From assembly GCA_963678065.2 (NCBI GenBank), contig CAXXVZ010000002.1, positions 1 to 64,000 on the forward strand: a DNA stretch of 64,000 nucleotides, given 5' to 3'. Below are positions 1,828-52,158 of this stretch, piece by piece. How positions within the stretch are numbered: the stretch's first letter is position 1; each line of letters starts with the position of its first letter. The translations under genes were made by a program, and so were the position numbers. This stretch comes from Treponemataceae bacterium. Lineage in GTDB: Bacteria; Spirochaetota; Spirochaetia; Treponematales; Rectinemataceae. The notes beneath the pieces were generated by a model. The model saw only the letters and a program-made list of their open reading frames with translations, was not told the DNA's origin and did not search any database.

Positions 1828-1856
1828 GGCCGCGCCCCCAGGCGCGGCCTTTTCTT
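1828..1856 (+). terminator. Rho-independent terminator
   Basis: GGCCGCGCC-ccca-GGCGCGGCC followed by TTTTCTT, just after the stop at 1797. Confidence 0.8.
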
Positions 1857-1950
1857 GATCCGCACGTGGGTTTCATACCCCGCGGCTCGCTGCGAGGTTG
1901 TCGACCCGGACACCGCGTTTTCCCCTGCCGCCGCTTTTTTTCGTGAAATG

Positions 1951-19367: not shown

Positions 19368-19520
19368 TTTTCCTCCTGAAGGAAACCACCCGGAGAACAT
19401 CCGGGGCACATCCACTGAAATCCGGGAAAATCCCGAAAACATATCCGCGTCATCGTCATCGTCAGCGTCCGCGGCATCCGCGAATCGCGATTCTGCGAGG
19501 CCCTGCGTGGCGCCTCCGGG

Positions 19521-20876
19521 CTACCTCGCCAGGCAGGGACGCTTGTTGTCGAACTTCCATCCGGGAATGAGGTACTGCATGGCCGTGGCGTCATCCCGGG
19601 AGCCAAGACCCTTTTCCAGATACAGCCGGTGCGCCGCCTCGATGCGCTCCATGTCGGGCTCGATGCCGAGGCCCGCCTTTTCCGGCACCTTGATCTGGCC
19701 GTCCACGATCTTCAGGGGCTCCACCGTGAGGCGCTCCTGGCCTTCCTGCCAGATCCAGTGGGTGTCGAGGGCGGTGATGGAGCCCGGCGCGGCCGCTCCG
19801 ACCTGGGTGAACATCGCGAGGGAGATGTCGAAGTGGTTGTTGGAGTGAGAGCCCCACGTGAGGCCCCACTCATTGCAGAGTTGGGCGACGCGGATCGAGC
19901 CTTGCATGGTCCAGAAGTGCGGGTCCGCGAGGGGGATGTCGACGGAGTGCAGCTGGATGGAGTGACCGAGCTGGCGCCAGTCGGTCGCTATCATGTTCGT
20001 CGCCGTGGGGAGGCCCGTGGCATTCCTGAATTCGGCCATGATCTCGCGGCCGGAGTAGCCGTTTTCGGCGCCGCAGGGGTCCTCGCAGTAAGCCAAGATT
20101 CCGCGCTTGTCCCTGCACAGCCTCGTGGCCTCTTCCAGGGACCAAGCGCCGTTCGGATCGATAGTGATGCGGGAATCGGGGAAACGTTCCGCGAGGGCGA
20201 TGACGGCTTCCATCTCGGCCTCGCCGGGAAGGACGCCGCCTTTAAGTTTGAAATCCTTGAAGCCGTAACGCGCCTTTGCCGCCTCGGCGAGGCGCACGAC
20301 GGACTCTGGCGTCAGGGCTTCCTCGTGCCGCAGGCGCAGCCAGTCGTCGGTGGCCGAGGGGGCGCTCAGATAGGGAAGGTCGGTCTTGTTGCGGTCGCCG
20401 ACGAAGAAGAGATAACCGAGCATGGGCACGGCATCCCGCTGCTTGCCGATGCCGAGAAGAGAGGCGACCGGCACTCCGAGGAATTGTCCGAGGAGATCGA
20501 GGAGGGCCGACTCGATGGCGGTGACGCAGTGGATCGCGACACGGAGGTCGAAGGTCTGCAGACCCCGTCCGCCCGAATCCCTGTCCGAAAAAAGATGACG
20601 CGCGCGGCTCAGGATGTCGTTGTAGGCTCCGAGCGATTTGCCGAGCACGAGGGCGCGGGCTTCTTCCAGTGTCCTGCGGATCTTCTCGCCGCCGGGCACC
20701 TCGCCTGAGCCGGTATGCCCGGCCGAGTCCTTGAGAATGACGATGTTTCGGGTGAAGAAGGGACTGTGTGCGCCTGACAGATTGAGGAGCATGCTGTCCT
20801 GCCCGGCGACCGGGATGACGAGCATTTCCGTGACGACGGGCGCCGACGAAGCCGCTGTGCAATTCTCAGTGTTCAT
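19521..20876 (-). CDS. gudD: Glucarate dehydratase family, paralogue 1
   Basis: [45 protein letters not shown]. Confidence 0.9.
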
Positions 20877-20902
20877 GTTTCTGACTCCCCTATGTTGCTT
20901 GC

Positions 20903-21817
20903 TCAGCGCAAGAGACCCATGCCGATGAGTACATGGCGGAGTTTTTCCCGCTCCTCGTGCGTCATCGGCCCGACGGGGTCCATGCAGGGACCGGCCTCGA
21001 TTCCGAGCAGTCCGAGCGATTCCTTGATCACCGAGGGGAAGGTTCCGATGGTGAAGGCGATACGCAGCGGCGCGAGGTTGAACTGCGCCTCGAGGGCGCC
21101 CGCCATGTCCCCGGCCATGAACTTGTTGTAGATGTCGGCGCAGATGCGCGGCGCCACGTTCGCGCAGGAGGCGATGGAGCCGGTCGCTCCGTAGCACAGG
21201 GCGCCGTAGATCAGCGTGTCGCGCCCCATGAGGACGGAAAAATCCTTCCTGTCCCGCGTCAACCGGATGTATTCGGCGGTGACGGTCAGATCCCCGCTCG
21301 AATCCTTGATGCCGACGATGTTGGAGATTTCTGCGAGTTTTGTTACGGTGGAGGAAGCCAAGGCAACGCTCGTCTTGGGCGGATTGTTGTACAGAAGCAC
21401 CGGAAGCGAGGTGTTGGCCGCGATGGTCCTGTAATGATCGTAGAGCTGATTCTGATTGGGCGTGATGAACATGGGCGTCAGGATCGAGACCGCGTCGACC
21501 TTGCACTCTTCCGCGAGCTGGGTGAGCATGACGCTCTCCCTCGTGGTGATGCCGTTCGACCCCGCGTAGACCGGCACCCTTCCCCTCGTATGGTCCATGG
21601 TGACGAGGAATATTTCCCGCTTCTCTTCGGCTGTGAGTCCGTAAAACTCGCCCGTCGTCCCGACGACGAAAAGGCCGTGTATGCCCCCGTCGATGAGATA
21701 GTCGATCAGCTTGCGCATCGCCTTCTCGTTGAATTTGCCCGTCGCGTCGAGCGGCGTTATGACAGCGGGTATGATCCCCTTGGGTTTGAATCCCGCGCTT
21801 TCTCCGTTCTGCTTCAT
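20903..21817 (-). CDS. DHDPS/NAL-family class I aldolase/lyase
   Basis: [20 protein letters not shown] (Schiff-base Lys). Confidence 0.88.
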
Positions 21818-21926
21818 CTGGTATCCATCCTCTCCTAATGATTTCGTCGATATGAGGCCGCAGCACGGAGCACGGACACTATCCATGCACCGGCATCACG
21901 CAGTCCCTGCCCGCCTGAACGGGCCT

Positions 21927-23462
21927 TCAGGTCACCGGGGCGGGGTTGAACAGGCACAGGGCGTTGTACAGTCTCCATTTCTCGGCCCATGTGCTCGTGC
22001 GGCCGCTTGCAACATCCAGAATGAAATTAAAAAGCTCCCATCCGAGCTCTTCGATCGTCGCCTCGCCCGAGGCTATCTGCCCCGCATTCACGTCGATAAG
22101 GTCGGGCCACTGCTCGGCGAGGGAGTTGCGCGTGCCGACCTTGATGACCGGTATCATCTCGAGGCCGTAGGGAGTGCCCCGTCCTGTCGTGAAGACCTGG
22201 AGCTGGATGCCAGAGGCCATCTGCAGGGTGCCGCAGATGAAGTCGCTCGCCGGCGTCGCCGCGAAAATGAGGCCCTTCCTGTCCACCCTTTCGCCGGGAG
22301 AGAGCACTCCGTCGATCGGGCCCGAGCCGGATTTGGCGATGGAGCCGAGGGCCTTTTCGACGATGTTCGCGAGTCCGCCCTTCTTGTTCCCGGGCGTCGT
22401 GTTGGCGCTGCGGTCCGCCTTTCCGAGGTCGAGGTAATCGTCGTACCACTTCATCTCGCGGATCAGGGCGCGCCCGACCTCGGGAGTCGCGGCGCGGGGC
22501 GTCAGGATGTGGATGGCGTCGCGCACCTCGGTGACTTCGGAGAAGAGCACTGTCCCTCCTGCCCGGACGATGAGGTCGGCTGCGAAGCCGACAGCCGGAT
22601 TGGCTGTGACTCCCGACAGGGCGTCGCTGCCGCCACACTGCACGCCGACGACGAGGTCGGAGACCGGGCAGCTCTCGCGTCGCCGCGCGTCGAGGCGCTT
22701 CAGGTGGACTTCGGCGCGCTCCATGATGACCCTGACCATATCCGCGTAGCCGTGGCAGTCCTGGAGCGAGACGATGTCCGCTTCCGCCCTACCCTGAGCG
22801 AGTCTCTCCGGGGCGAATTTCTCGCAGCCGAGGCCGACCACCATGGTTTCTCCGCCCAGGTTGGGATTCAGCGCCAGATTCTGGAGGGTCCGGATGGGGA
22901 TGATTGCCTCGGGAGCGTTGATCGCTACCCCGCAGCCGTAGTTGTGGTTGAGGGCGACGACTCCGTCCACGTTCGGGTACTTCGGAAGAATTTCGTCCTT
23001 TATCCGTTTCACCGCATGGTCGACGACGCCGGCCACGCACTGGACGCTCGTGTTGATGCCGAGGAGGTTCCTGGTTCCCGCGCTGCCGTCCGGATTGCGG
23101 TAGCCCTCGAACGTGTAGCCATCCAGGGCGGGCATGCGCGCGGGGACGGCGTTGGCCAGAGGCAGGCTGTCCATGTCGGGGGCCTTCGGCAGGTCGACGA
23201 GGGATTCGTCGATCCAGCTTCCTCGTGAAACAGGGCGGGCGGCGTGGCCGATCACCTGTCCGTAGCGGAGGATGGCCTCGCCTCTTCCAAGATCGCAGAG
23301 CGCGACTTTGTGCCCCTCGGGTATCCGCTCGAGGAGCACGAGGCCGTCCGGGAACTGTGTCCCCGCCGGAGCGCCTCCCGCGGAGCCGATCACGGCGACG
23401 TTGTCAGCCGGATCTACTTTAATGAGATTCGGGTATATCCGCGCGGCAGATTCTGAAGACAT
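21927..23462 (-). CDS. garD: Galactarate dehydratase (UxaA/GarD family)
   Basis: SAF-domain N-terminus; [33 protein letters not shown], ends FNPAPVT. Confidence 0.92.
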
Positions 23463-23583
23463 TCTGTCGTTCTCCCCTGAAAAATTGCCTTATCCCGTCA
23501 ATCGCGATGATCGCGATGATCGCGATCGGAACCAGGTGCGCTCGCATGCCCGGCGCACAAGCATGCCTGGCGTATGAGCAGTG

Positions 23584-24978
23584 CTACACGTACATCGAAT
23601 TGCGCTTGGGGTCGTACTTCCAGTCGGGGATCAGGTATCTCATCGCCATGGCGTCGTCCCTCGCCCCGAGGCCGATCTTCTGGTAGAGGCGGTTGGCGCT
23701 CTCGACCCGGTCCATGTCCAGTTCGACACCGAGTCCGGGTTTTTTCGGGACCTGCACGAGGCCGCCTTTGATCGGAAAGGGTTCCTTCGTCAGACGCTCC
23801 TCGCTCTCCTGCCAGATCCAGTGGGTGTCGATGGCCGTCGTTCGTCCCGGAGCGGCGGCCGCGACGTGGGTGAACATCGCGAGGGAGATGTCGAAGTGGT
23901 TGTTAGAGTGCGAGCCCCAGGTGAGCCCCCACTCCTTGCAGAGCTGAGCGACGCGGACGGAGCCCTGCATGGTCCAGAAGTGCGGATCGGCCAACGGGAT
24001 ATCGACCGCGTGCAGTTTGAAGGAGTGGCCGAGCTGGCGCCAGTCGGTGGCGATCATGTTGGTCGCGGTCGGAACGCCGGTGGCACGGCGGAATTCGGCC
24101 ATGATCTCGCGCCCGGAGTAGCCGTTCTCGGGACCGCAGGGGTCTTCGGCGTAGGCCATTACATCGTTCCGGCCGCGGCAGAGGGAGATAGCCTCGTCCA
24201 GAGACCATGCCCCGTTCGGATCGAGGGTTATCCTGGCCGCGGGAAAGCGCTTCGCCAGGGCCTCGACAGCCTGCATTTCCACGGCCCCGCTCATGACGCC
24301 GCCCTTCAGCTTGAAGTCCTCGAAGCCGTAGCGCTCCTTGGCCGCCTCGGCGAGTCTCACGACCGATTCGGGCGTGAGCGCTTCTTCGTGGCGGATGCGC
24401 AGCCACTCGTCGGCTCCGCCCGGATTCCCGAGGTAGGGAAGGTCGGTCTTCTTGCGGTCGCCGATATAGAAGAGGTAGCCGAGCATGCGGACAGCGTCGC
24501 GCTGCTGGCCTTCGCCCAGAAGCGCCGCGACGGGAAGGCCCAGGAATTTGCCCAGGAGGTCGAGCAGGGCTGCCTCGATGGCGGTGAGGACGTTGTCGGC
24601 CCGGAGATTGATCTCGTGGGGTTGTTTGAGGACGGCGGCCTCGGCCGCGCTCGTGACTTCGTGGACCGTCGTCCGGGGACCCGTCGCATTTCCGCCGAGG
24701 AGCTGCGAGCGGATGCCGTCCAGGATGCCGTTCATGGCTCCGATGGATTGGCCGACGACGAGGGGAATGGCCTTCTCCAGGTTCTTCCGGATGCCTTCGC
24801 CGCCGGGGACTTCGCCGACGCCGGTCTGTCCCGAACTGTCCGCGAGGATGACGATGTTGCGGGTAAAGAAGGACGAATGCGCGCCGCAGAGATTGAGCAG
24901 CATGCTGTCATGTCCGGCTACCGGGACGACCAGCATTTCCGTCACGACCGGCGCTCCGGTATAGGTATTCTCTCCCAT
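23584..24978 (-). CDS. Glucarate dehydratase family, paralogue 2 (long-loop variant)
   Basis: Same catalytic motifs as paralogue 1, but [24 protein letters not shown] replaces GLQTFDLR; start could be 24987. Confidence 0.85.
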
Positions 24979-25078
24979 TCTTTTCATCCTTCGTTCAGAT
25001 TTTTGGTCTTCGATTCGCGGGCCCATGATTCCGGCCCGGAACCCGAGGTCGCAGAAAGTTCGCTGGCTGACCGCGGGC

Positions 25079-25777
25079 TCAGGCCCTCTCGTCCGCCGGA
25101 ATCTCTTTCTTCGCCTTCAGCCTCTGCATGCGATGCTGCGTGTGGAGGACGGCGATCTCTTCCGCGTCGGTCTCGTTCTGGGTCTTGATGGCCTCGAACA
25201 GCTTTATGTGGCTCTTGTAGGCCTCTTCGCAGATTTCGGCGTTGAAATTTTCCAGGCGGTAGGGCCTGAGCATCACCTGAATGGCTTCGAGGAGGAATAC
25301 GACGAGAGGATTCCGGATGATCTGCGCGAGGCGAGTGTGGAACTCTTCGTCGGCGGAGATGAAAGCTTTGCTGTCGTTGAAGGACTCTGCCTGCCGCGCC
25401 AGGTTTTCCTCGAGATCGTAGAGGTCGTTTTCGTTCCGGTACTTGATCGCGTTGAGAAAGGTTTCCCTGTCCAGAAGCGCCTTCACCGCGTAGAGATTGA
25501 TGGTGTCCGCCTCTTTTCCGAGCATTCCGAGGCGGAAAAAGAGCACGAAGAGGGTGTCGAGGTCGCCGGGCGACAGCTGTTTCACGAAGGATCCCGCCCG
25601 AGGATGCATGTCTATGACGCCCAAGGCCGCGAGCGTGATGAGTCCGGTCCGCACCTGGCTCTGATTGCAGTCCCAGAGCGTAGCCATCTCCCGGATCGAG
25701 GGGAGTCTGGTCCCGACCTGCAGGTTGTTGTCCACGATGTACTGGATGAGTTTGAGCGCAACGGTGTTGGTCAACAT
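25079..25777 (-). CDS. GntR family (FadR subfamily) regulator
   Basis: RLPSIREMA...[21 protein letters not shown] motifs. Confidence 0.88.
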
Positions 25778-25797
25778 GATCTCTCGCCTGTCCTTTT

Positions 25798-25840
25798 TAG
25801 ACTCTGATTATCAGTGATTATCACAGATAATCAGAGTCTA
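25798..25840. promoter_or_regulatory. Near-perfect 43-bp palindrome with three GATWATCA boxes; probable operator
   Basis: TAGACTCTGATTATC-AGTGATTATCACA-GATAATCAGAGTCTA; 15-bp perfect arms. Confidence 0.75.
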
Positions 25841-25863
25841 TGGGCATTATTGGAATCCGTCAA
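25835..25863 (-). promoter_or_regulatory. sigma70 promoter of GntR/aldarate operon
   Basis: Minus strand TTGACG-17 bp-TAGACT. Confidence 0.75.
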
Positions 25864-26111
25864 GAAAAAAAGTGTGTCGCCTTTTCTTTTTTAGATCGCC
25901 CGGGCAGCGATGAAATTCACGTGTTGCCGGTACTGTACTGCAGGGGTGGTCAGTCATGTACCGGCATGAATGTGCCGTGCATACGACGGTGAAAAACGGG
26001 GCTTTCCGTAAACGGGACGACCCGCTATCCTGACGCGGTCATCGTGGCGGCGGCGTGATTTCCCTGCCGTGACCGGCCTTGAAGGACAGTTTTCGACAAG
26101 GAGGCAGTCAC

Positions 26112-27524
26112 CTGAAAACGATTTTCCGCATCGGAATACTGGTTCTCGTCGGCCTGCACCTCGCCGGCCCATTTCTGCCCACCACCCTGCAGCCTGTGAT
26201 GTTCATCCCCGCCCTTCTCGTCCTTGTGACAGGATTTCCCCTGATGAGCGGAGGATTCCGCAAGGCTGCCACCCTCTTCCTGGCGCTCGGCGCGGCGATG
26301 CTCGCCTTCAGCCGGCAGCCTGCCTCCGCATGGATGGCAGCCTGCACCTCGATGACCAACATCATTGCCATCGTGGCAGTCATGCAGACCTTCTCCATGC
26401 CAATCCGGCTGGGCGACTATGATTCGGCGATACATTCCTGGCTCAGCCGCAGGTTCAAGAGCAATCGTGCGCTTTTCTTCTTCACGACCATGGCGACACA
26501 CCTTCTCGCGAGCCTCCTCAATCTGGGCTCCATCCCGGTGACTGTCTCCCTCCTCGAGGACACAATCCGACGAAGGGCGCCCCGGTACGAGCGATTCTTC
26601 GCGGCAGCCATGACGCGCGGCTATGTGCTCGCGACGCTCTGGTCTCCCGGAGCGGTCATTCTCTACCTGATTTTGCAGGCAACCGGCCTCTCCTGGGCAC
26701 GACTCTTCGTGCCGGGCTTCCTCCTGGGACTTGCGGGCATGGCGATGTCGTACCTGATGGAAACGCAAAAGCGCGGCGTCCTCTACGAGGCGCCGGAACA
26801 GGTTCACAGGCACGATCGCGCGGACAGGAACGACCCCGAAACCCCGCCCCCTCAGGATGCGCAGGCGAAGAAAGGCGAAGGTTCGCGCGCCTCGCATATC
26901 GTGCTCGTCGCCGCGGCCTTCGTCATAGTCCTCTTTGTCTTTGAAACGCTGCATATCGGCTCATCATCGGGCAGGATCATACTCGCCGGAACTCTGATTT
27001 CCCTCGGATGGACCCTTCTTTTGTCCCGCCGCCCCGGACTCTCCGGCGTACTGAAATCGTACTGGACCGACGGACTCATGAAAGCCGCCGAAATCGGACC
27101 CTTCTTCGTGGCCATGGGATTCTTTTCAGGTGCGCTGGAAAAATCGGGAGTCATGGACATAGTCGGCCCAGCACTCCAATCCGCGTCGATTTCCCTCGGG
27201 GCAGGGGCCGTCGTCTTCATCGGACTCGTCATCGTCCTCTGTTCGCTCGCAGGACTTCACCCCTTCATCACCATCGTCCTGTTCGGAAAGATTCTGGCAC
27301 ACGCGGACCTGCCCATTCCCCCTCTGACCGTCGCCCTTTCGCTCACGGTAGGCGCTGCGACCTCCTACATGATCTCGCCCTTCGCGGGAATGATCATGAC
27401 GGTCTCGAAGCTCCTCGGGGCCAAGGCCACGGATGTGGCCATCCGTTGGAACTGGCGGTTCTGCATCCTGTTTTTCACGACAGGGATGCTGTTCTCGTTT
27501 CTCTGGGGGGCCTGGTTCGGCTGA
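26112..27524 (+). CDS. Multi-pass membrane protein, probable organic-acid transporter
   Basis: About 11-12 hydrophobic segments with a central hydrophilic loop; AAGGAGG 7 nt before an in-frame CTG (alternative TTG at 26079). Confidence 0.7.
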   Translation: MKTIFRIGILVLVGLHLAGPFLPTTLQPVMFIPALLVLVTGFPLMSGGFRKAATLFLALGAAMLAFSRQPASAWMAACTSMTNIIAIVAVMQTFSMPIRLGDYDSAIHSWLSRRFKSNRALFFFTTMATHLLASLLNLGSIPVTVSLLEDTIRRRAPRYERFFAAAMTRGYVLATLWSPGAVILYLILQATGLSWARLFVPGFLLGLAGMAMSYLMETQKRGVLYEAPEQVHRHDRADRNDPETPPPQDAQAKKGEGSRASHIVLVAAAFVIVLFVFETLHIGSSSGRIILAGTLISLGWTLLLSRRPGLSGVLKSYWTDGLMKAAEIGPFFVAMGFFSGALEKSGVMDIVGPALQSASISLGAGAVVFIGLVIVLCSLAGLHPFITIVLFGKILAHADLPIPPLTVALSLTVGAATSYMISPFAGMIMTVSKLLGAKATDVAIRWNWRFCILFFTTGMLFSFLWGAWFG

Positions 27525-27526
27525 GA

Positions 27527-27564
27527 CTGAAGGCAGACCGTCCTGCGACGGTCTGCCTCTTCAG
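27527..27564. terminator. Hairpin between convergent genes
   Basis: AGGCAGACCGTC-ctgc-GACGGTCTGCCT. Confidence 0.7.
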
Positions 27565-27575
27565 ACTTTATATAG

Positions 27576-28943
27576 CTAGCGCACGAGACAGGGTTTCTTG
27601 CTGTCGAACTTCCATCCGGGAATCAGATACTGCATCGCGCTCGCATCGTCTCTGGCGCCCAGGCAACGCTGCAGGTAGAGACGGTTCGCCGCCTCGATGC
27701 GCTCCATGTCGGGCTCGATTCCGAGGCCGGGGCGATCCGTCACTGCGATCATGCCGTCGACGATGCGGTGTGGCTCCCGGGTGAGCCGCTCGCGGCCTTC
27801 CTGCCAGATCCAGTGCGTGTCCAGGGCGGCGATTTCGCCGGGAGCGGCGGCGCCGGTGTGGGCCGTCATGGCCAGGGAGATGTCGAAGTGATTGTTGGAG
27901 TGCGATCCCCAGGTGAGGCCCCATTCGGCGCAGAGCTGGGCCACCCTGACCGAACCCTGCATGGTCCAGAAGTGCGGGTCGGCGAGGGGGATGCTCACCG
28001 ACTGGAGCATGATCGAGTGTCCCATCTCGCGCCAGTCCGTGGCAATCATGTTCGTCGCCGTGGGCAGGCCGGTCGCCCGCCTGAACTCCGACATCACTTC
28101 GCGGCCGGAAAATCCCCGCTCGGCTCCGCAGGGATCTTCGGCGTAGGCGAGTATCCCGTGCAGATTTCTACAAAGCCCGGTGGCCTCCGCGAGGGACCAG
28201 GCGCCGTTTGGATCGATCGTGATGCGGGCTTCCGGGAAGCACTCCGCAAGCGCCGTGATCGCCTCGATTTCCTTCACGCCCGCAAGGACGCCGCCTTTCA
28301 GCTTGAAGTTGCGGAAGCCGTAGAGCTCCCTGGCCGCTTCGGCGAGCCTCACGACGGATTCGGGAGTCAGGGCTTCCTCGTGCCGCAGGCGGTACCAGTC
28401 CTCTTTCGCGCCAGGCTCGCACTGGTAGGGAAGATCGGTCTTCGTCCGGTCTCCGAGGTAGAAGAGATAGCCGAGCATCTCCACCTCGCTTCTCTGCTGG
28501 CCGGTGCCGAGGAGGGCAGCGACCGGAAGGCCGAGAAACTGGCCGAAAAGATCGAGGAGAGCCGATTCGATCGCGGTGACCGCGTGGATCGCGACGCGCT
28601 GATCGAAGGTCTGCTGGCCCCGCCCCTCTGCATCGCGGTCAGCGAAGCGCTTGCGGACGATGTTCAGTGTATTGTTGTACGCGCCGATCCGGGAACCGAT
28701 GACGATGGACCGCGCATCTTCGAGGGTGGCGCGGATCTTCTCGCCTCCCGGTACTTCTCCGAGGCCCGTGTTGCCATGGTTATCCTTCAGGATGACGATG
28801 TTCCGGGTAAAGAACGGACCATGCGCTCCTGACAGGTTCAGCAGCATGCTGTCGTGGCCCGCGACGGGGATCACGAGCATTTCGGTGACGGTGGGGGATC
28901 CTGGGCCTGCGTGACCCGGGACGGTTTTTTCGAGGACTTCCAT
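27576..28943 (-). CDS. Glucarate dehydratase family, paralogue 3
   Basis: [43 protein letters not shown]. Confidence 0.88.
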
Positions 28944-28994
28944 TATTTCTCCTTCGCAAATTTCCTGACCGGATAGAGTATCCCGATGTGGATA

Positions 28995-29011
28995 TGCAAA
29001 AACCGCGCCAA
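28995..29011 (-). promoter_or_regulatory. sigma54 (-24/-12) promoter of gudD paralogue 3
   Basis: Minus strand TTGGCGCGGTTTTTGCA (GG-N10-GC). Confidence 0.8.
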
Positions 29012-29403
29012 ATGGTTCAAATAATGGAATCATCTATATGAAATAGAATTATTCAGACTCCACCTGTAACAGGCACATGCCCTGATCTCGCGCAACAGTT
29101 GTTGCACGGTGGCAGAGCACGCCCAATCCTGCATCATTCGTTGCAGGATTGTGTCGCCATGGTCGGGCTTTGGCCGATCGCGGCTCTTCGATACAGTCCG
29201 CGGGGAGACCGACGGGAAGTTATCAGGAAATTCCCGTCCATCCGGAAAAGCCTTCCAGGCTCTGCAACCACTGTGGCATTTCCCTGCTTCGCACCAAAAA
29301 ATTGCTGCATCCCCTGATGCATCGAGGCGATTCTTGACCTGGAACCGTCCGCGGAACCTCGCGGATCATTGTCGTTTTTCGCATCTGTCGCAAATCAGAA
29401 AGA

Positions 29404-29517: not shown

Positions 29518-31281
29518 ATGATGAAGAAAACCGCATTTGCATTGATTGCCGCACTGCTTTTCGCATCGTCGATATCCGCTCTGGATATCCAGAAATTCCC
29601 TAAAATCGGGGATATGTACAAAATGCTGGACCCCGCCGATCCCTACAAAACGGTCATCAGCGGCCTGTTCCGCCAGACCGTAAAAGTCGGGACCGTCGAG
29701 CGCTCCTTCCTCGTCTATATCGCGAAGGACAACGCCCAGTACCAGCCCTACCTCGTCATCGTCCCGGATGCAGGTCAGAATCCAGTCGAGACGCTCGAGA
29801 AGAGCGGCTGGAAGGAGATCGCCGACGCCAACGGCATGATCCTCATCGTCGCCGAAAGTCCCGACGGAAAGTGGGACCGCGCCAGGGACCTCGTGTATCT
29901 GGAAAGCATGTATTCCCTCAGCCATACCCGCAACTGGTACAATGTCCAGAAGGGCAACAACTACCTGGCGGGCTACGGAAACGGCGCCGCGCTCGCGCAG
30001 GCCTGGGCTATGAAAAAGCCGGCCAATTTCTGCTCTTTCGCCACCTTCGGCGATTTTTCCATCGACCAGAAGTACATGACGGATTCAGGCAGCGCCCCTT
30101 CCGAGCTCCGCTACATCCCCATGCGCGAAGTTCCGATGCCGGTGTGGATGTTCGTGCCCTCGATGACGGGCGCGGTGCAATCCGCGCTCGATTATTGGAA
30201 ATATTCCAACAAGGCCGAAGGCGAAGCCCTCTCCGATGCCAACGCGACAGGTATTTTCCTGGCCAAGACCAACGGGATCGACAGCCTCATCGACGAACAG
30301 GATCTGCTCGCGCAGACGAGGTATACGGTGACCGCGGACGCGGCCGCCTGGAATCCCGGCAGGGCAGCGGCCGTATGGAAGTTCCTCTCCAGCGTCATCA
30401 GGCCCGTCGCCCTGGCGAACAACGACCTCCGCGCCGCGCGTTCCACCGAAGACTGGGGCGCCGTCCGCAGGACGCTCACGATAGACGGCTACAGCCGCTA
30501 CTGGATCGAGTTCGTTCCCAAACAGCTGCGCACGACAGTCGCGGGGAAGGCGCCTCTCGTCGTCTATTGCCACGGCGTCAACAACACGGCCGAAGCGATC
30601 GTCGACCGAACCGAGATGATCAAGTGCGCCAACGAGCGCGGCTTCATCGTCGTGTTCCCCACGGGTTCGCTCTTCAACAGCGACAGCCAGTTCCCGAATC
30701 CGGGCTGGAACCTTCTCGAGGATCCGAAACTCTTCGACGACTATACGTTCATAAAGGCGATGGTTTCCGAGGTCGCTGCACGATTGCCCGTCGACAGGAG
30801 CCGGATCTACATGAGCGGGCAATCCTACGGATCGATGGCCACCATGGCGATGTCGCTGAGGATGAACGATATCTTCGCGGCCGGCGCTTCGACCGCGGCC
30901 CTCCTTGCCGGTCCCCATGCCGAACTCTACAAATCCGCGAAGATCCTTCAGGGCAATAAAATGCCGATTTACTACATAGCCGGCGAACGCGACAATCCCG
31001 ACTCCATCGATCCGAAAAACATCGAACTCAACATGAGCTACTGGATCCAGCGCGACGGCGCCGGCGACTATGCCAGGCCCTCCGCGTACAAGGACGGCCG
31101 CTACAACATCAGGGCCTGGCTCGACGCCGACGGCGTGCCTCTCGTGCAGTGCGCCATCGTCGACGAGAAGCCACACACACCGCTTCCGATGGACAACTAC
31201 ATCATGTACGACACCTTCCTCTCCAAATACTCGAGGGGCGAGGACGGAACGCTGTACTACATGGGCGCGGCCGTCAAATAA
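29518..31281 (+). CDS. Secreted double-domain alpha/beta hydrolase (PHB-depolymerase/LpqC-like esterase) 1
   Basis: Signal peptide; C-domain PLVVYCHG, GFIVVFP, RIYMSGQSYGS, late His (KPH); N-domain equivalent GYGNG. Confidence 0.8.
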   Translation: MMKKTAFALIAALLFASSISALDIQKFPKIGDMYKMLDPADPYKTVISGLFRQTVKVGTVERSFLVYIAKDNAQYQPYLVIVPDAGQNPVETLEKSGWKEIADANGMILIVAESPDGKWDRARDLVYLESMYSLSHTRNWYNVQKGNNYLAGYGNGAALAQAWAMKKPANFCSFATFGDFSIDQKYMTDSGSAPSELRYIPMREVPMPVWMFVPSMTGAVQSALDYWKYSNKAEGEALSDANATGIFLAKTNGIDSLIDEQDLLAQTRYTVTADAAAWNPGRAAAVWKFLSSVIRPVALANNDLRAARSTEDWGAVRRTLTIDGYSRYWIEFVPKQLRTTVAGKAPLVVYCHGVNNTAEAIVDRTEMIKCANERGFIVVFPTGSLFNSDSQFPNPGWNLLEDPKLFDDYTFIKAMVSEVAARLPVDRSRIYMSGQSYGSMATMAMSLRMNDIFAAGASTAALLAGPHAELYKSAKILQGNKMPIYYIAGERDNPDSIDPKNIELNMSYWIQRDGAGDYARPSAYKDGRYNIRAWLDADGVPLVQCAIVDEKPHTPLPMDNYIMYDTFLSKYSRGEDGTLYYMGAAVK

Positions 31282-31341
31282 GCGCACAACCAATCGGGAA
31301 ATAATGCATGGAGCGCCGTACCGGCACGGCCGGCGCTCCGG

Positions 31342-31480
31342 AATGAACGAACCCCGGAGCAGAGCTCCGAGGTATCGTTCGTTCTGTAAGGAATGGATTG
31401 TATGCGGGTCCATACCCGATAGGCACCTCACAAGAAGAGCGAAGCAGGACTTCGGGGTATGGACCCGCATGCGAATCAAA
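31342..31480 (+). repeat. 139-bp two-hairpin dispersed element, copy 1
   Basis: Near-identical to 49807-49945; stems GAACGAAC/GTTCGTTC and TGCGGGTCCATACCC/GGGTATGGACCCGCA. Confidence 0.92.
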
Positions 31481-31496
31481 TGATAAAGGAGCAAAC

Positions 31497-33302
31497 ATGA
31501 AAAGCATCAAGAAGGCGCTCTGCGTTCTTCTCCTCCTCGCCTCGGCCTGCGCCTCATACGCGGCAGGTGCGGGAGCCTTCGCGGCTAAAACCGGGATCCA
31601 GAAATTCCCGGCGATCGGGGCGCTCTACGACAAGCTCGATCTCTCCGATCCATACAAGACGGTCGTGTCGGGGCTTTTCAGGCAGGACCTGAACCTCAAG
31701 ACCGAGACGAGGTCCTTCCTCGTGTACGTCGCGGCCAACAATCACCAGGCTGAATCCTACGTCTGCATCATCCCCGATTCCCGGCAGGATCCCCGGCAGG
31801 CGCTCGAGCTCAACGGCTGGAAGGAGATCGCCGACGCCAACGGGCTCGTCCTCGTCATCATGGAGCCGAAGAGCGGAGGCTGGGACATCGAGAAGGATAT
31901 GACCTACCTGAGTACGATGTACTCCCAGAGCAGACTCAGGCAGTGGTACAACGTCCAGAAGGGCAACAGCTATCTGGTCGGCTACGGCGACGGCGCCACC
32001 CTCGCTCAGGCCTGGGCCATGCGCGCGCCGGCGAACTTCGCCTCCGTCGCGACCTTCGGACCGGTCTCTCTCGGCGTGGATTTCATCGCTTCCGCGGCGG
32101 CCGCGAAGACGGAGAGCCCCCTCGTCAGGAACAACGAGATTCCCCTTCCGATGTGGATGTTCGTCGAGTCCTGCGGCGTCCCGGAGCGCAGGGTCTTCGA
32201 GTACTGGAAGACGGCGAACCAGGCCGACGGGACGCAGGTCTTCAGGAACGACGACGTGAGCGAGCTCTATCTCGCAAAGCCGAATGCCCTCTCCACCTTC
32301 GTCGACGAAGTGGACATGATCGCGCAGACACGCCTCAGTGTCGCCCCGAATGCGCTCGCCGACGACGCGGAAAGGACGAAGAAAGTCTGGGGCTTCCTCT
32401 CCTCCGTGACGAGGACGGGCGGCATCATCAATTCCGACCTTCGCCCGGCATACACGCTGCAGGATTGGAAGGCGACGAAACAGACCATACAGATCGATGG
32501 CGTCACGCGGCAATGGTTCGAATTCGTGCCCGCCCAGCTCCACAACGCCGTGAATGGTAAAGTGCCTCTCGTCGTCGCGATGCACGGCTCGAGCACGACA
32601 GCCGACGCTTTCCTCTGGCGCTCGGAGTGGATCAAGCTGGCGAACGAGCGCGGGTTCATCGTCGTGTTCCCGGCCGCTTCGTTCAACAAGGATGACAAGG
32701 CCATGCCCAGGCCGAACTGGAATATCGCCGGGGACAAGACCAATTTCGACGACTACAAATTCCTGCGCGGCATGATCGCCGAAGTTTCGAAACGTCTGCC
32801 GGCCGACCCTTCCAGAGTGTACGCGACCGGACAGTCCATGGGCTTCATGACCAGCCTGGCCATCGCCCTCCGGCTGGACGACCTCGTCACCGCGATTGCC
32901 GGCGAGACGGGTTTTCTTCTCACCGACAAGGCAGGAGCTCCCTACTACACTTCCGAATATGCCAAGCATACGGGCAAAATCCCCGTCTTCGTCATCATCG
33001 GCCAGAATGACATGCCGGATTTCCTTTCGGAGCCCACGAAGAAGATCAACCTGGAGTACTGGATCCGCAGGGACGCAGCAGGCGAGTACGAGGCGCCCTT
33101 CGGCAGCTATGTCGACGGCCGCTATCGCATAACCTCCTGGGCGGACCGGAACAACATTCCCCTCGTTCAGTACGCCTTCGAGCTGGAGCGGCCGCACGCG
33201 CCTGTCCCCTCCGACAACACGATGCTCTACGACGGATTCCTGTCCAAGTGGAGCCGCGGTTCCGACGGCACGCTCTATTACATGGGAAAAGCGATACAAT
33301 AG
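31497..33302 (+). CDS. Secreted double-domain alpha/beta hydrolase (PHB-depolymerase/LpqC-like esterase) 2
   Basis: Paralogue of 29518-31281; PLVVAMHG, RVYATGQSMG, RPH; N-domain GYGDG. Confidence 0.8.
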   Translation: MKSIKKALCVLLLLASACASYAAGAGAFAAKTGIQKFPAIGALYDKLDLSDPYKTVVSGLFRQDLNLKTETRSFLVYVAANNHQAESYVCIIPDSRQDPRQALELNGWKEIADANGLVLVIMEPKSGGWDIEKDMTYLSTMYSQSRLRQWYNVQKGNSYLVGYGDGATLAQAWAMRAPANFASVATFGPVSLGVDFIASAAAAKTESPLVRNNEIPLPMWMFVESCGVPERRVFEYWKTANQADGTQVFRNDDVSELYLAKPNALSTFVDEVDMIAQTRLSVAPNALADDAERTKKVWGFLSSVTRTGGIINSDLRPAYTLQDWKATKQTIQIDGVTRQWFEFVPAQLHNAVNGKVPLVVAMHGSSTTADAFLWRSEWIKLANERGFIVVFPAASFNKDDKAMPRPNWNIAGDKTNFDDYKFLRGMIAEVSKRLPADPSRVYATGQSMGFMTSLAIALRLDDLVTAIAGETGFLLTDKAGAPYYTSEYAKHTGKIPVFVIIGQNDMPDFLSEPTKKINLEYWIRRDAAGEYEAPFGSYVDGRYRITSWADRNNIPLVQYAFELERPHAPVPSDNTMLYDGFLSKWSRGSDGTLYYMGKAIQ

Positions 33303-45120: not shown

Positions 45121-47658
45121 TCAGGCCCAGCGCACCAGGCCGGGCACGAAGCTCTGCACGAGGTCGGGGTGCTTGGGAAGGACGCGCACGGCGTAGCCGA
45201 CCTGGCCCGTGCGCACGCACTTCACGTCGATAGCGTACTCCAGAAGGTTGTTCTTCTGGCCGGCCGGACTCATCTCGTCGAGGATAGCCGACTCGATCTC
45301 GCCCGTGCTGGACAGAGGGCCGTGGTAGCACTCGACCCTGACCTCGTCGGGGGAAAGTCCCGCGAGGTCCACGAGGGCCCGCACGTTGACGAAATCGCCG
45401 CGCTCCATGACCGGCTTCGCGTCGGCTACGAGATCGCGGATCTGGACGCCCGGCCAGGCGCGGCGCGCCTTGTCGAGATAGCTCGCGAGGCGGTCGGCAG
45501 ACACGAATCCTGCCGCCGTCATCTTCCTGTGGTTCTCGAGGGCGGGAATGTAGAAGGAGTTGGAGTACTCCTCGAGCATGCGGTATGTCGAGAAGTCCTT
45601 GCCTATCGTCCTCATGGTAGCCTTCATCTTGGCTATCCATTCGCGGGGCAGGCCGTCGCGGCCGCGCCTGTAGAAGAGGGGGATTATCTCGCTTTCCAGA
45701 AGATCGTAGAGGGCCTCGCTCTCGACCTTGTCCTGGAGCTCCTCGTCCTTGTATTCCTCTCCCGAACCGATGGCGAAGCCGATCTCCGGAGTGTAGGCCT
45801 CGGCCCACCAGCCGTCGAGGATGGAGCAGTTGAGGACGCCGTTCATGCCGGCCTTCATGCCCGAAGTGCCCGAGGCCTCCATCGGACGCCTCGGCGTGTT
45901 GAGCCATACGTCGGCGCCCGATGTCATGTAGCGCGCCATGGCCATGTCGTAGTTTTCCAGGAAGACGATGCGGTTCTGGACTTCCGGCAGGCGGCTGAAA
46001 TGGACGAGCTGCTTGATGAGCTCCTTGCCGGCGATGTCGTGCGGGTGGGCTTTTCCGGCAAAGATGAGCTGGATCGGATGTTCGTTGTCTGAGAGCAGCT
46101 TGAGCAGGCGCGCAGGGTCGCGCAGGAGCAGGTTGCCCCGCTTGTAGGTGGCGAAGCGCCGGGAGAAGGCGATGGTGAGGGCGTAGGGCGAAAGGGTGTC
46201 CTCTGCCTCGTGCAGGGCCACATCCGTCGCTCCGTTGCGCTTCAGGGATTTCTTGAGCTGCTCGCGCGCGAACACGACGAGGCGGCTGCGTCTGCGGGCG
46301 TGGGTGCGCCAAAGTTCCTCGTCCGAAATCCTGTCCATCCGGTCCCATATCTCGCGCTTGGCGGGCTCGTCGTAGAACCTGGGACCGAAGTAGCGGTCCA
46401 TGACCTCGAGCATGTTGTGGGAGATCCATGTGCGGGGGTGGACGCCGTTGGTGATGGAGGTGATGGGCACTTCCGGATAGGGGAGGCCCGGCCAGAGCGA
46501 GGACCACATCGTTCGGGACACTTCGCCGTGGAGGGCCGAGACGCCGTTGTTGTAGGCCGAGAGCTTGAGGGCCAGGATGGTCATGCAGAAGGTTTCGTTG
46601 TAGTCCTCGGAATTTTCGCGGCCGAGGGTGAGGAAATCCTTCCAGTCGAGGCCGAGGAGACTGGCCCAGGAGCGGAAATACCTCTCCATGAGGTCGATGC
46701 CGAAGCGCTCGTTGCCCGCCGGAACGGGGGTGTGGGTCGTGAAGATGTTCGTGGGTAAGAGAGCCTGCAGGGCCTGGTAGAAATTGAAACCGCGCTCGGC
46801 CATGAGGATGCGGATCCGCTCCAGCCCGAGGAAGGCGGCGTGCCCCTCGTTCATGTGGGTGACCGCGGGCACGATGCCGAGGGCGCGCAGCGCGCGGATG
46901 CCGCCGATGCCGAGAAGCATCTCCTGGCGCATGCGCATATCCTTGTCGCCGCCGTAGAGCGTCGCCGTGATGACCCTGTCCTCGGGGCTGTTCTCGTCGA
47001 TATTGGTGTCGAGAAGGTAGAGGGAGTTGCGTCCGACCTTGACTTCCCAGATGGCCGCGGCGATCGTCCTGCCGGACATCTCGACGGAGATGAGAACGGG
47101 TTTGCCATCGGCGCCGAGGCAGCGGTAGACGGGCATGTTGTACCAGTCATTCTCGGGGTAGGATTCCTGCTGGTATCCGTCCTGGTTCAGGTTCTGCTTG
47201 AAATAGCCCTGGCGGTACAGGAGACCGACGCCGACCAGAGGAAGGCCCATGTCGCTCGCCGTCTTCATGTGGTCGCCGGATAGGATGCCGAGGCCGCCGG
47301 AATAGATGGGCAGCGAGACATCGAGACCGTACTCCATGGAGAAGTAGGCGACGAGATCCTCGCGGGGGCCCTTGTACCAGGTCTCGCCGTGCTTGTAGTT
47401 CTCGAACTTGTCGACGACTTCCTTCAGGGCGGCGAGGAAAGAATCGTCCTTGGCGAGCTCGTCGTAGCGCTCCTGGGAGACCATGCCGAGCATCTTGGCG
47501 GGGCTCTGGTCGGACTCGATCCACTTGTCGTAGTCCAGCCTCATGAAGAGCATGACTGCGTCGAAATTCCAGGACATCCATATGTTGTGTGCGATTTCTT
47601 CGAGAGGAGCGAGGGGGCCCACTATTTTCGGTTTCACGGTATGCGAAATAATCTTCAT
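45121..47658 (-). CDS. glgP: Alpha-glucan (glycogen) phosphorylase
   Basis: YSGGLGILSGD, HMNEGH, RRFATYKR, EASGTSGMK. Confidence 0.95.
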   Translation of the reverse strand: MKIISHTVKPKIVGPLAPLEEIAHNIWMSWNFDAVMLFMRLDYDKWIESDQSPAKMLGMVSQERYDELAKDDSFLAALKEVVDKFENYKHGETWYKGPREDLVAYFSMEYGLDVSLPIYSGGLGILSGDHMKTASDMGLPLVGVGLLYRQGYFKQNLNQDGYQQESYPENDWYNMPVYRCLGADGKPVLISVEMSGRTIAAAIWEVKVGRNSLYLLDTNIDENSPEDRVITATLYGGDKDMRMRQEMLLGIGGIRALRALGIVPAVTHMNEGHAAFLGLERIRILMAERGFNFYQALQALLPTNIFTTHTPVPAGNERFGIDLMERYFRSWASLLGLDWKDFLTLGRENSEDYNETFCMTILALKLSAYNNGVSALHGEVSRTMWSSLWPGLPYPEVPITSITNGVHPRTWISHNMLEVMDRYFGPRFYDEPAKREIWDRMDRISDEELWRTHARRRSRLVVFAREQLKKSLKRNGATDVALHEAEDTLSPYALTIAFSRRFATYKRGNLLLRDPARLLKLLSDNEHPIQLIFAGKAHPHDIAGKELIKQLVHFSRLPEVQNRIVFLENYDMAMARYMTSGADVWLNTPRRPMEASGTSGMKAGMNGVLNCSILDGWWAEAYTPEIGFAIGSGEEYKDEELQDKVESEALYDLLESEIIPLFYRRGRDGLPREWIAKMKATMRTIGKDFSTYRMLEEYSNSFYIPALENHRKMTAAGFVSADRLASYLDKARRAWPGVQIRDLVADAKPVMERGDFVNVRALVDLAGLSPDEVRVECYHGPLSSTGEIESAILDEMSPAGQKNNLLEYAIDVKCVRTGQVGYAVRVLPKHPDLVQSFVPGLVRWA

Positions 47659-47740
47659 CTCTTACCACCTTTTCGGGCAGGACTGTTCAGGTCGGATTAT
47701 ATAGGATCGAACCGACTCCGCCAGAGGGATCGAAAAATAT

Positions 47741-49519
47741 TCAGTGTAAATTTGAGTTTTTTCTGAACAAATTGGCGATTTTTCCAAGCAATCCGTTCCC
47801 GGAAGCGTGCGCCTCGTCGATACGATCATTTTTATCTGGTATCCGATCGTCCAGGCGCGCCTCAGGCAGAACTCCGGAGGGAGAGGAGGGCCGGGAGACA
47901 GCTGCCTGCGGCGACCTGCCGCGGTCCCCGCCGCCCCCTCTGCCTTCGCCGTACTTCTCGCGGTAGGAACGGAGGCGTTCTTCCATTGAAAGCGAGTACG
48001 GATCGGCGGCACGGCCGGTCATTCCGGTGTCACTCGTGCCCTGGGAGGCCGCGCGGCTCTTCCCAACGGGACGATCAGCGCGCCGGGTCTGCTCGCTGCC
48101 GGCTTTTTTCCGGTCAGGCAGGGATCGCGGCCGGGTCTGGCGGCCGGAGTGCGTTGCCTTGTCTGGGGATTTTCCCGACGCTCCACCTTGTCTTCGGCCT
48201 GCGGCGTCCGCGACCTGTGCCGGGCGAATTCCGCCTTCCTCGCGCATCTTCTGCGCCGTCATCCTGCCCGCGGCCTCGTCTACGCTCATCATGATGAGAG
48301 GCGCCGCCTCCGCGCCCCTGTCCTTCCGCGGGCGACGACCTTCCCTATTCATGTCCCTGCCCTGAACAGGGCGGCTATCGGCTGCCACGGCCGAAACATC
48401 GGCATGATCCAGCATCGCCTTTGGCGCCTCGACCGCATTCAGGCTGAAGCCGACGAGGCCCTCTATCGCGGGCAGTCCGTAGACATAGCGCTCGCAGGCC
48501 AGGTTCACTACCTTCGATCCAGGATAGTGCGGATCGAGCCAGGCGAGTCGTTTCCCGTAGAGTTCCGGCTCGAGGGGAATGTCGAAGTTGACGACAAGGG
48601 AAAAGCGGCCCTGGGCGGGCTTTCCGGCGCCCTCATCGCTCGCGACAAAGAAGGAACCGCGGGGGGGCGCGGCGCCGGCCTCCGCGCTCCGATGCCGAAA
48701 TGGAGGAAGGTTCGCGGGCAGCGGCTTCGCATTCAGACCGTTCGCCGAAAGACGGCGCGTCAGATCCGCGGCCGTATCCCTCAGATTGCAGAACACGATG
48801 CAGAATTCGGGCTTTTCGCGCTCGGCCAGACCGAGCAGAAAGCGGAGTTTCGCGTCGCTGTCAATATGGTAGGTTTCGCTCCGGATACTGCGCATGCGGA
48901 GAAAGGTCTCATCGATCGAAATCTCCGAGAGGTTCTCCGCGAGATCGCGAGCGAGCTTCCTGGCTTTTCCCGTAAAGCGGGAGCAGACGAGGATGGCGCG
49001 CATCTCCCAGGAAGGGGGAAGAAGGGCGCGAAGAGCCTCCATCCGGTTTCCGGCCTGCTCGGCGATCGCGTCGAGGCCATCGACGACGAGAAAACCGAAG
49101 TCGCGGGGCGAAAGGCCACCGCCTTCAAAGGCGGCCAGGACAGCCGACAGAGTGCCGGCCACAAGAGACTCAGGAAACTCGCTCCCGCCCGGGACTTCGT
49201 CGCCGGAAAGCGTCCGGACGGAAACACCGAGGGGGGTCCCGAGTGTCTTCGCGACGACACCCGCCTTCACGGCCGAATCCGCGTCGGGGGTCAGGAGAAG
49301 GACCCTGCCCTTCCGTTCCGGAGTCGCCGACAGTATCCAGTCCAGGGCAGGAAGGATGAAAATCTCCTCCCTGCCCACGCCGATATCGAGTCTGGCGCAG
49401 ACATTTTCTCTGTTCAGCACGGCGTGGCTCAGCATCGAATCATGCAGCGCGGGCGCCGAACGCAGCCTTCCGACCGCGGGCATCAGCCCGGCCGCAAGCC
49501 CATATAGTGAAAAATCCAT
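47741..49519 (-). CDS. DEAD-box-helicase-like protein with degenerate catalytic motifs
   Basis: Helicase framework (MDFSLYGL, LLLTP, IVFCN, VVNFDIP) and basic disordered tail, but no GKT, DEAD, SAT or HRIGR. Confidence 0.7.
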   Translation of the reverse strand: MDFSLYGLAAGLMPAVGRLRSAPALHDSMLSHAVLNRENVCARLDIGVGREEIFILPALDWILSATPERKGRVLLLTPDADSAVKAGVVAKTLGTPLGVSVRTLSGDEVPGGSEFPESLVAGTLSAVLAAFEGGGLSPRDFGFLVVDGLDAIAEQAGNRMEALRALLPPSWEMRAILVCSRFTGKARKLARDLAENLSEISIDETFLRMRSIRSETYHIDSDAKLRFLLGLAEREKPEFCIVFCNLRDTAADLTRRLSANGLNAKPLPANLPPFRHRSAEAGAAPPRGSFFVASDEGAGKPAQGRFSLVVNFDIPLEPELYGKRLAWLDPHYPGSKVVNLACERYVYGLPAIEGLVGFSLNAVEAPKAMLDHADVSAVAADSRPVQGRDMNREGRRPRKDRGAEAAPLIMMSVDEAAGRMTAQKMREEGGIRPAQVADAAGRRQGGASGKSPDKATHSGRQTRPRSLPDRKKAGSEQTRRADRPVGKSRAASQGTSDTGMTGRAADPYSLSMEERLRSYREKYGEGRGGGGDRGRSPQAAVSRPSSPSGVLPEARLDDRIPDKNDRIDEAHASGNGLLGKIANLFRKNSNLH

Positions 49520-49806
49520 GAATTCTCTCTTTCGTATCGATTGCGCGCCTTATGGAAGTTGCGCGAAGGGTAGGATCATACCCGATCAAAGGGCATAAAG
49601 TGAAGGCGTGGATCGCAGGCGGGTTTCCTACCCCACAGATGCCCTCCTCTTTACTGGAGACACCGGGCATGAAACCCGCACACAACCAATTCCCTACAGA
49701 TCCGACATCGGAGGAAAGTCCTTCTATTTGGTTATTTTTATCTATATAAGAATGTATATAGCATTTTCTACGAGACGGAGTTATACTGTCTCCGCTTCAA
49801 CAACCT

Positions 49807-49945
49807 AATGAACGAACCCCGGAGCAGAGCTCCGAGGTATCGTTCGTTCTGTAAGGAATGGATTGTATGCGGGTCCATACCCGATAGTCACTTCACAAGA
49901 AAGAGCGAAGCAGAGCTTTGGGTATGGACCCGCCTGCGAATCAAA
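49807..49945 (+). repeat. 139-bp two-hairpin dispersed element, copy 2
   Basis: Near-identical to 31342-31480. Confidence 0.92.
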
Positions 49946-49969
49946 ACCCCCCGACAAGGAGCGATCCGA

Positions 49970-52027: not shown

Positions 52028-52158
52028 CTGAAAAGCCGTGGCCTTCACGGTATGTTGAATGACATCCCCGCTCAGGTGGTTCCCGGCGAAGGCCCGGATC
52101 GAAATCGGCCGCTGCCTGAGACATTCTGAGCGGGAATGATCGATTGTTCGGGAAGAGA

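Follow-up and report, generated by a model that had tools for sequence, protein, structure and literature searches.

A gene-less insertion of 132 nt with IS200-type ends is present in two full-length copies in the 64,000-nt stretch of Spirochaetota DNA analysed here (the window). The element lies directly 3' of a TGAT target and brings no target duplication. We hold with high confidence that it is a transposable unit likely moved in trans by an IS200 TnpA and predicted to mask its own ends. An earlier, sequence-only reading of the window had offered a non-autonomous, HUH-mobilised, PATE-like element as one of two explanations, and an empty site, guide/cleavage covariation and an IS200 with matching ends in the same genome now support it. 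On the minus strand, which is the active one (Table 1), the left end runs from target TGAT through 13 nt to guide CATA and a palindrome, and the right end from guide GATA through a second palindrome and 5 nt to TCAT, followed by T.

Table 1 Features of the element and its relatives in the window
Feature	Position	Strand	Basis or remark
Copy 1	31343..31474	-	Left end 31474, right end 31343; bounds transferred from the copy 2 empty site
TGAT, target and left cleavage site; part of the chromosome, not of the element	31475..31478	-	18/19 long copies; covaries with left guide
CATA, the left guide, set 13 nt in from the left end	31458..31461	-	Spacing as in the genome's own IS200; covariation
Left subterminal palindrome, within the loop of hairpin 2 of the sequence-only reading	31440..31454	-	Same hairpin type in autonomous IS200 left ends
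Inner inverted arm, 14-bp helix P1 with left guide and linker	31404..31417	-	383/406 cells Watson-Crick, 30 distinct arms
Conserved 21-nt core, mostly single-stranded	31384..31404	-	Diverged but recognisable in f3 and G081; absent from 110 tnpA loci
Right guide GATA	31373..31376	-	Covariation
Right subterminal palindrome; with its flanks, the extended stem (hairpin 1 of the sequence-only reading)	31352..31372	-	Same hairpin at autonomous L105, L156-L158
Right cleavage site TCAT, then conserved T outside the element	31343..31346	-	Covariation; empty site
Copy 2	49808..49939	-	Missing from run X7, where 49806 joins 49939; 132 nt skipped, joint ambiguous by 3 letters
Target TGAT of copy 2	49940..49943	-	Occurs once in X7, where the element is missing
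Decayed older long copy, opposite orientation	49609..49733	+	Covariance model 44.3 bits, E 1.9e-8
Short single-hairpin relative, ~50 nt; likely a core-deleted relic	1856..1906	+	nhmmer E 3.2e-10; 0 matches in reversed-genome control

Much of the initial description held. The two near-identical copies align with 132 of 140 columns identical and no difference in the first 81 nt; both proposed hairpins fold far better than shuffled sequences (z -6 to -9; 0 of 200 shuffles as good, as RNA and as DNA on both strands); and the ATGs at 31497 (copy 1) and 49970 (copy 2) do lie 16 and 24 nt beyond the copy ends drawn at the time. Terminal inverted repeats are absent, as had been said, since the top-strand ends (TCGC.. 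and ..TCAT) are not complementary, and the empty site carries no target duplication; both absences set the element apart from a MITE. In the cmscan-type check that had been proposed, no Rfam family reached its gathering score in the window, and copy 1 returned just miRNA-type hairpin noise up to E 10. Three details changed. The length is 132 nt, as given by the empty site, rather than 139; the supposed terminal TCAA belongs to the chromosome, being the target read in reverse complement, and the empty allele retains it; and the suggested plus-strand pair GAAT/TCAA gives way to CATA/TGAT and GATA/TCAT on the minus strand, GAAT being replaced in other lineages.

The gene 3' of copy 1 is esterase-like, and this copy lies between the genes of two paralogous proteins of 600 aa, each with a PHB-depolymerase-like esterase domain at its C terminus (window 29518-33302, plus strand). 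Copy 2 precedes a pyridine-nucleotide oxidoreductase with a weak DoxX match, for which no NCBIfam model scored above its cut-off; 'NDH-2' was the label of the sequence-only reading. Because copy 2 contributes an in-frame ATG and 54 open codons before the oxidoreductase start at 49970 (window 49808-52027, plus strand), ORF finders give a 739-aa protein, which is likely an annotation trap. Elsewhere in the window (19520-29033, minus strand), three tandem paralogous blocks about 4 kb apart are 70-83% alike; the one gene scanned among them belongs to the enolase superfamily, and a GntR regulator lies in between.

The empty site was found by comparing contigs of four public runs (X3, X5, X7 and X8) with window positions 47500-52500. 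Copy 2 is exactly missing from X7, a related strain, where 132 nt are skipped and the target is retained once; this evidence concerns a single site in assembled contigs, whose shorter flank at the joint spans 30 nt. The ambiguous joint permits four registers, from which the guide rule described below led us to choose 49808-49939. Contigs of X8 end at 49809 and restart at 49939, and X3 and X5 gave no joint of the empty-allele type at copy 2 within the compared interval. Across the 19 long copies of the genome (G000), the fifth target base, next to TGAT, is variable, with TTGAT in 12. Head-to-tail junctions that join TCAT to TCG occur at three G000 loci and at L017 and L068 and show the same ends. 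The G000 copies are homogeneous, with a median identity of 95% among 13 full-length copies.

In IS608, a guide 5' of each palindrome pairs crosswise with the cleavage site, the target remains in the left flank and a particular base is preferred after the cut (the +1 preference), as set out in part of PMC5934647; from two IS608 pairs given there we derived a fourth-base pairing rule. Parsing of relatives yielded 83 cores, 59 of which have an xATA left guide. Position 1 of the left guide pairs with position 2 of the target in 55 of these 59 (CATA/TGAT type, 45; AATA/TTAT, 10; rule broken, 4), counts in which copies inside one genome are not independent and the AATA/TTAT type comes from five genomes. 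A CGTA/CGAT left pair was seen twice, in one genome, beyond the 59. At the right end, 60 of 66 parsed copies obey the rule by parser (GATA/TCAT, 46; CATA/TGAT, 14), and the six misses comprise five mis-parses that read TG by eye and one truncated end. Right-end covariation of the element can also stem from its extended right stem; autonomous right ends mostly lack this stem and yet obey the guide rule. Among autonomous IS200 ends, the rule held at 39 of 48 right ends (unselected parser) and 20 of 31 left ends.

A candidate mobiliser is encoded in the same genome. G000 contains six Y1 matches, three of which are identical copies of an intact IS200 tnpA (NF033573, 135 bits against a cut-off of 55), two of them in tandem. 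The ends of this IS200 have the same palindrome type and 13-nt spacing as the element, with CATA/TGAT as right guide and cleavage site and AATT as left guide. IS200 homologues in the order and in metagenomes carry the same ends, and the element's own right palindrome recurs at four autonomous loci (Table 1). At G000 C3:861735-862846, two identical IS200 copies lie head to tail with the right-end/left-end junction expected of a circle intermediate. None of the 110 tnpA loci read combined a CATA left guide with a TGAT target; the left guides seen at autonomous ends were AATT, AGTT, AATA, GATT, CATT and TATT. One TnpA cross-mobilises cognate guide/target pairs, according to part of bioRxiv 10.1101/2023.03.14.532601.

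The sequence-only reading had pointed to tnpA, tnpB or RAYT as possible partners, and the first of these is the likely one, given the intact tnpA of the IS200 whose ends match. TnpB was absent from all 16 carriers searched and from G000, and IscB did not score above its cut-off in any of 20 genomes. A partial IscB-like HNH gene (94 bits, below the cut-off) lies at a contig end in G028 (L256, C191), with no element end downstream of it. Some complete carrier genomes yielded no Y1 transposase at all: none was found in 5 of 5 genomes of family f3, in 3 of 5 draft relatives or in 13 of 20 other carriers. Among these Y1-free genomes, the complete G081 holds about nine near-identical copies of the element. 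The simplest reading of Y1-free carriers is that a transient IS200 has been lost. A comparable puzzle of a missing transposase is described for Haloquadratum in part of PMC3119063.

The genome-wide search recommended at the outset replaced the two-copy view with a census of 19 long copies and 46 that are short or partial in G000, in all gene contexts (65 loci), alongside the one empty site. The long copies were identified with a covariance model (20 candidates scored); the remaining 46 loci came from a profile built on short relatives, which gave 0 matches in a reversed-genome control; BLAST and nhmmer returned 17 matches of at least 120 nt plus shorter variants. Two further window copies, one decayed and one short, came to light beyond the original pair (Table 1).

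That each copy precedes a ribosome-binding site (RBS), as first described, is true of both window copies and is a window effect rather than a rule. A start codon lies within 40 nt downstream of 4 of the 19 long copies, and neighbouring genes occur in all four orientation pairs, as judged from a simple gene-calling model that also placed 4 of the 19 long copies inside a called ORF. These counts bear on the second explanation of the sequence-only reading, a cis-regulatory RNA of the downstream genes. Both window copies do have an RBS on one side and an upstream gene or promoter region on the other and would be co-transcribed, but the two downstream genes are unrelated, the same RBS and gene are present in the strain that lacks copy 2, and the predicted accessibility of the RBS is about equal with and without the element. 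We give this explanation next to no credence.

The target TGA coincides with the stop codon of the adjoining gene at 16 of 65 loci, against 6.3% expected, an excess that likely reflects retention at harmless sites. The frequent position of short copies right behind stop codons, together with a longer Y1 protein in G000 (C3:1420694) and several carriers, could also be taken to indicate REP/REPIN sequences spread by a RAYT (TnpA-REP). However, no element flanks any of these longer, RAYT-like Y1 genes, the palindromes are direct rather than inverted, the tags are CATA, GATA and AATA rather than GTAG or CGTC, and the ends match those of IS200 tnpA loci. REP/REPIN spread is highly improbable.

Short copies of about 50 nt with a single hairpin fuse the left end to the right end across the two similar palindromes, a collapse of the same kind as the 52-bp forms of PATEs reported in part of PMC3119063. 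About a dozen of them, counted by eye, combine a CATA guide with a TCAT end against the rule and are therefore likely dead deletion products; the remainder terminate, by eye, in TGAT or CGAT, as do older long forms. Other deletions removed the loop or the arm (a 113-nt form in three copies, an 89-nt form in one, and L071, L082 and L135). The 113-nt form carries an identical loop deletion at the distant G000 loci C5:240693, C3:1443450 and C4:632980, which suggests that it moved without the normal left palindrome. In one short copy (L007, G000 C3:2347621-2348879), the hairpin loop contains an IS110-family element with a PF02371 match, a 311-aa ORF whose 5' part is apparently damaged, and short subterminal inverted repeats. 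This element, which is single-copy in the genome, may target these palindromes.

Orientation was strongly biased in G000, where the top strand lies on the contig minus strand at 54 of 65 loci, compared with 49.6% of available intergenic targets (p 3e-8). The GC skew of this genome is too flat to place replichores, and dnaA and gene-strand bias were used instead. On contig C5, all 16 copies left of dnaA are on the minus strand and the sole copy to its right is on the plus strand. In the complete genome G081, 16 of 19 copies follow the GC-skew switch, read in 20 windows of 15 kb (Fisher p 0.006 with the skew-read cut and 0.024 with the midpoint cut). The complete genomes G038 and G051, whose origins were not located, showed no clear strand switch, and the 100-850 kb region of G000 C3 is mixed. 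The bias in G000 C5 and G081 fits entry into the lagging-strand template, a route treated in parts of PMC3597680 and PMC3971601; the relevant part of the latter gives no biased IS family in Spirochaeta, taken as a phylum.

Applied to 151 genomes of the order, the covariance model recognised the family in 50 of them, in 24 of 63 genera. A third of the genomes sampled contain this unannotated repeat. In a phylum-wide sample it was found in 7 of 151 genomes, one of them outside the order and weak. BLAST recovered relatives in 11 of 60 genomes, and a core-pattern search recovered 49 loci, all titled Spirochaetota. One genome outside the order, G378, contains a 100-nt repeat (L233, L240 and L246) with the same palindromes, an inner complementary arm, an extended right stem and another linker, possibly an independent or distant form. 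The plasmid collection gave no match to the element; in viral contigs, a 16-nt core pattern matched nine times, and none of the nine scored as the element (best 12.8 bits).

Three features of the element are absent from autonomous ends: the inner arm, the extended right stem and the 21-nt core that sits between them. The left guide is predicted to be paired in 45 of 56 elements and in 0 of 57 autonomous left ends. Similarly, all 41 distinct element ends (six mis-parsed rows dropped) are predicted to pair the right cleavage site with bases 5' of the guide, as against 4 of 36 autonomous ends chosen for a visible right end. The guide is also masked in the predicted circle form, so that integration would be hindered too. 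Every long subfamily seen in families f1, f2, f3 and f4 has both helices and the core motif despite turnover of the loop, and in the covariance-model matches of f3 and G081 the core is diverged but recognisable, with helices and spacing preserved; loci L053-L101 were picked by core pattern and cannot show core conservation. In the loops of L080, L059 and L072 (termite-gut-type records), a resemblance to the 5' end of IS200 tnpA was seen by eye, a hint that the variable loop is a relic of that gene. A conserved peptide starting from the RBS-like motif of the core was rejected, as reading frames are not kept across lineages, as was a conserved outward promoter at the core TACAAT, for which copy 2 gave a single weak match, copy 1 gave none and no -35 is conserved.

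The inner arm and extended stem may instead be neutral by-products of fold-back duplication and quasi-palindrome repair, which would leave an ordinary PATE and would challenge the masking step only. Double changes inside single young copies (C3:2049023 and C5:1183) suggest templated repair rather than selection; with the DNA-palindrome-like character of the helices, they mean that covariation in the helices is not proof of selection. Perfected palindromes in G000 and the forms lacking loop or arm point the same way. Against this account, arm-less forms were seen as single copies and the long subfamilies retain helices and core, and we rate it as rather unlikely. The persistence of arm, core and stem while the loop changes makes selection on the element, in our view, more likely than not. 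Our proposal that the helices are kept because they throttle excision is tentative, and we put it at somewhat below an even chance.

Under a different view, the element has an IS200 PATE origin and its helices and core serve a structured RNA or a second factor, now used for spread or for a host function. Such a role would suit an architecture kept across four families though the loop is unalignable, coordinated changes of the extended right stem in L232 and L239 that are independent of the guide, and bursts of apparently recent date in complete genomes in which no Y1 gene was found. A weak sigma-70-like match on the minus strand of copy 2, absent in copy 1, could be added, and the plus-strand order of flank, closing stem and conserved linker presumably recalls the start of IscB omega-RNAs. 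However, P1 is near-pure Watson-Crick with no excess of G-T over A-C (5 versus 7), as in DNA palindromes, the double changes in single young copies fit templated repair, and the searches for TnpB, IscB and Rfam families came out as reported above. Metatranscriptomes X19 and X20 share a small fraction of the region's words, an overlap that in itself is not evidence for or against an RNA. We consider an RNA or second-factor role improbable.

A bolder extension of self-masking would see these elements as order-wide 'locked' single-strand transposons, whose anti-guide and anti-cleavage arms and core gate HUH transposition or pass it to a factor other than canonical TnpA. We regard this as unlikely; if true, it would account for new expansions in complete genomes that have no Y1 gene and would give peel-and-paste elements a TnpB-free route to avoid self-loss.

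For the favoured reading, trans-mobilisation of a self-masking element, the IS608/ISDra2 pathway suggests how transfer could proceed. TnpA would bind both palindromes on the exposed lagging-strand template, with guide CATA picking TGAT and guide GATA picking TCAT; the element would exit as a single-stranded circle and enter 3' of another TGAT. Recombination between the two similar palindromes would shrink copies to the single-hairpin forms of about 50 nt. Peel-and-paste elements delete themselves from the donor strand, and TnpB or IscB counters that loss. For an element without TnpB, excision would amount to loss of the copy, and masking may act as a brake on it.

The element thereby bears on how gene-less peel-and-paste derivatives without TnpB or IscB persist and expand. 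It provides a natural test case of 120-160 nt with defined ends, an empty site and a cognate-type TnpA in the same genome, and its natural guide variants (CATA, AATA, CGTA and GATA) make a guide-masking role testable with oligonucleotides. Its insertions also place strong hairpins in leaders or just after stop codons, and they can give rise to false gene starts.

Among known systems, the autonomous IS200 elements (G000 C3:851-863 kb and L102-L227) share with the element the palindrome, the spacing of about 13 nt, the guide/cleavage pairs and the T after the right cut. They differ in carrying tnpA, in showing no CATA left guide of the kind described above, and in leaving guide and cleavage site mostly unpaired. 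In HEARO or IscB omega-RNAs (RF02033), the transposon end is closed by a stem that lies on the opposite strand from the one used by TnpA. The element, in contrast, has no Rfam match at copy 1, is much shorter and has no linked nuclease gene.

IS608 and ISDra2, as covered in part of PMC5934647, resemble the element in the cross-pairing of guide and cleavage site and in the +1 base preference. They also have a second left-end hairpin for which a regulatory role has been proposed; that of IS608 buries bases 3' of the palindrome, whereas the extra arm of the element pairs with the guide itself. REP, BIME and REPIN sequences, in the descriptions given in parts of PMC8266576 and PMC3733652, are likewise short intergenic palindromes with a tetranucleotide tag and with short forms behind stop codons. 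The element departs from them in having no GTAG or CGTC tag and no flanked RAYT, and in its direct palindromes and fixed ends with a precise empty site.

The closest counterparts are PATEs (Dyall-Smith et al. 2011, PMC3119063), which, in the parts of that report compared, also lack terminal inverted repeats and target duplication, have near-terminal palindromes and IS200/IS605-like ends, are too short to code and are homogeneous above 90%. They too form terminal-only versions of about 52 bp by core deletion and have other mobile elements inserted in a palindrome. PATEs also occur in G. stearothermophilus, as noted in part of bioRxiv 10.1101/2023.03.14.532601. No description of the element in treponemes was found in the literature searched (ISfinder and subscription journals lay outside its scope), and Treponema is not mentioned in the relevant parts of PMC3733652 and PMC3184786. 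The present element is bacterial, from the Spirochaetota, and its inner arm, core and extended right stem do not appear in the PATE descriptions compared. It is a PATE by every testable feature, and the new part is the self-masking architecture added to an otherwise PATE-like element.
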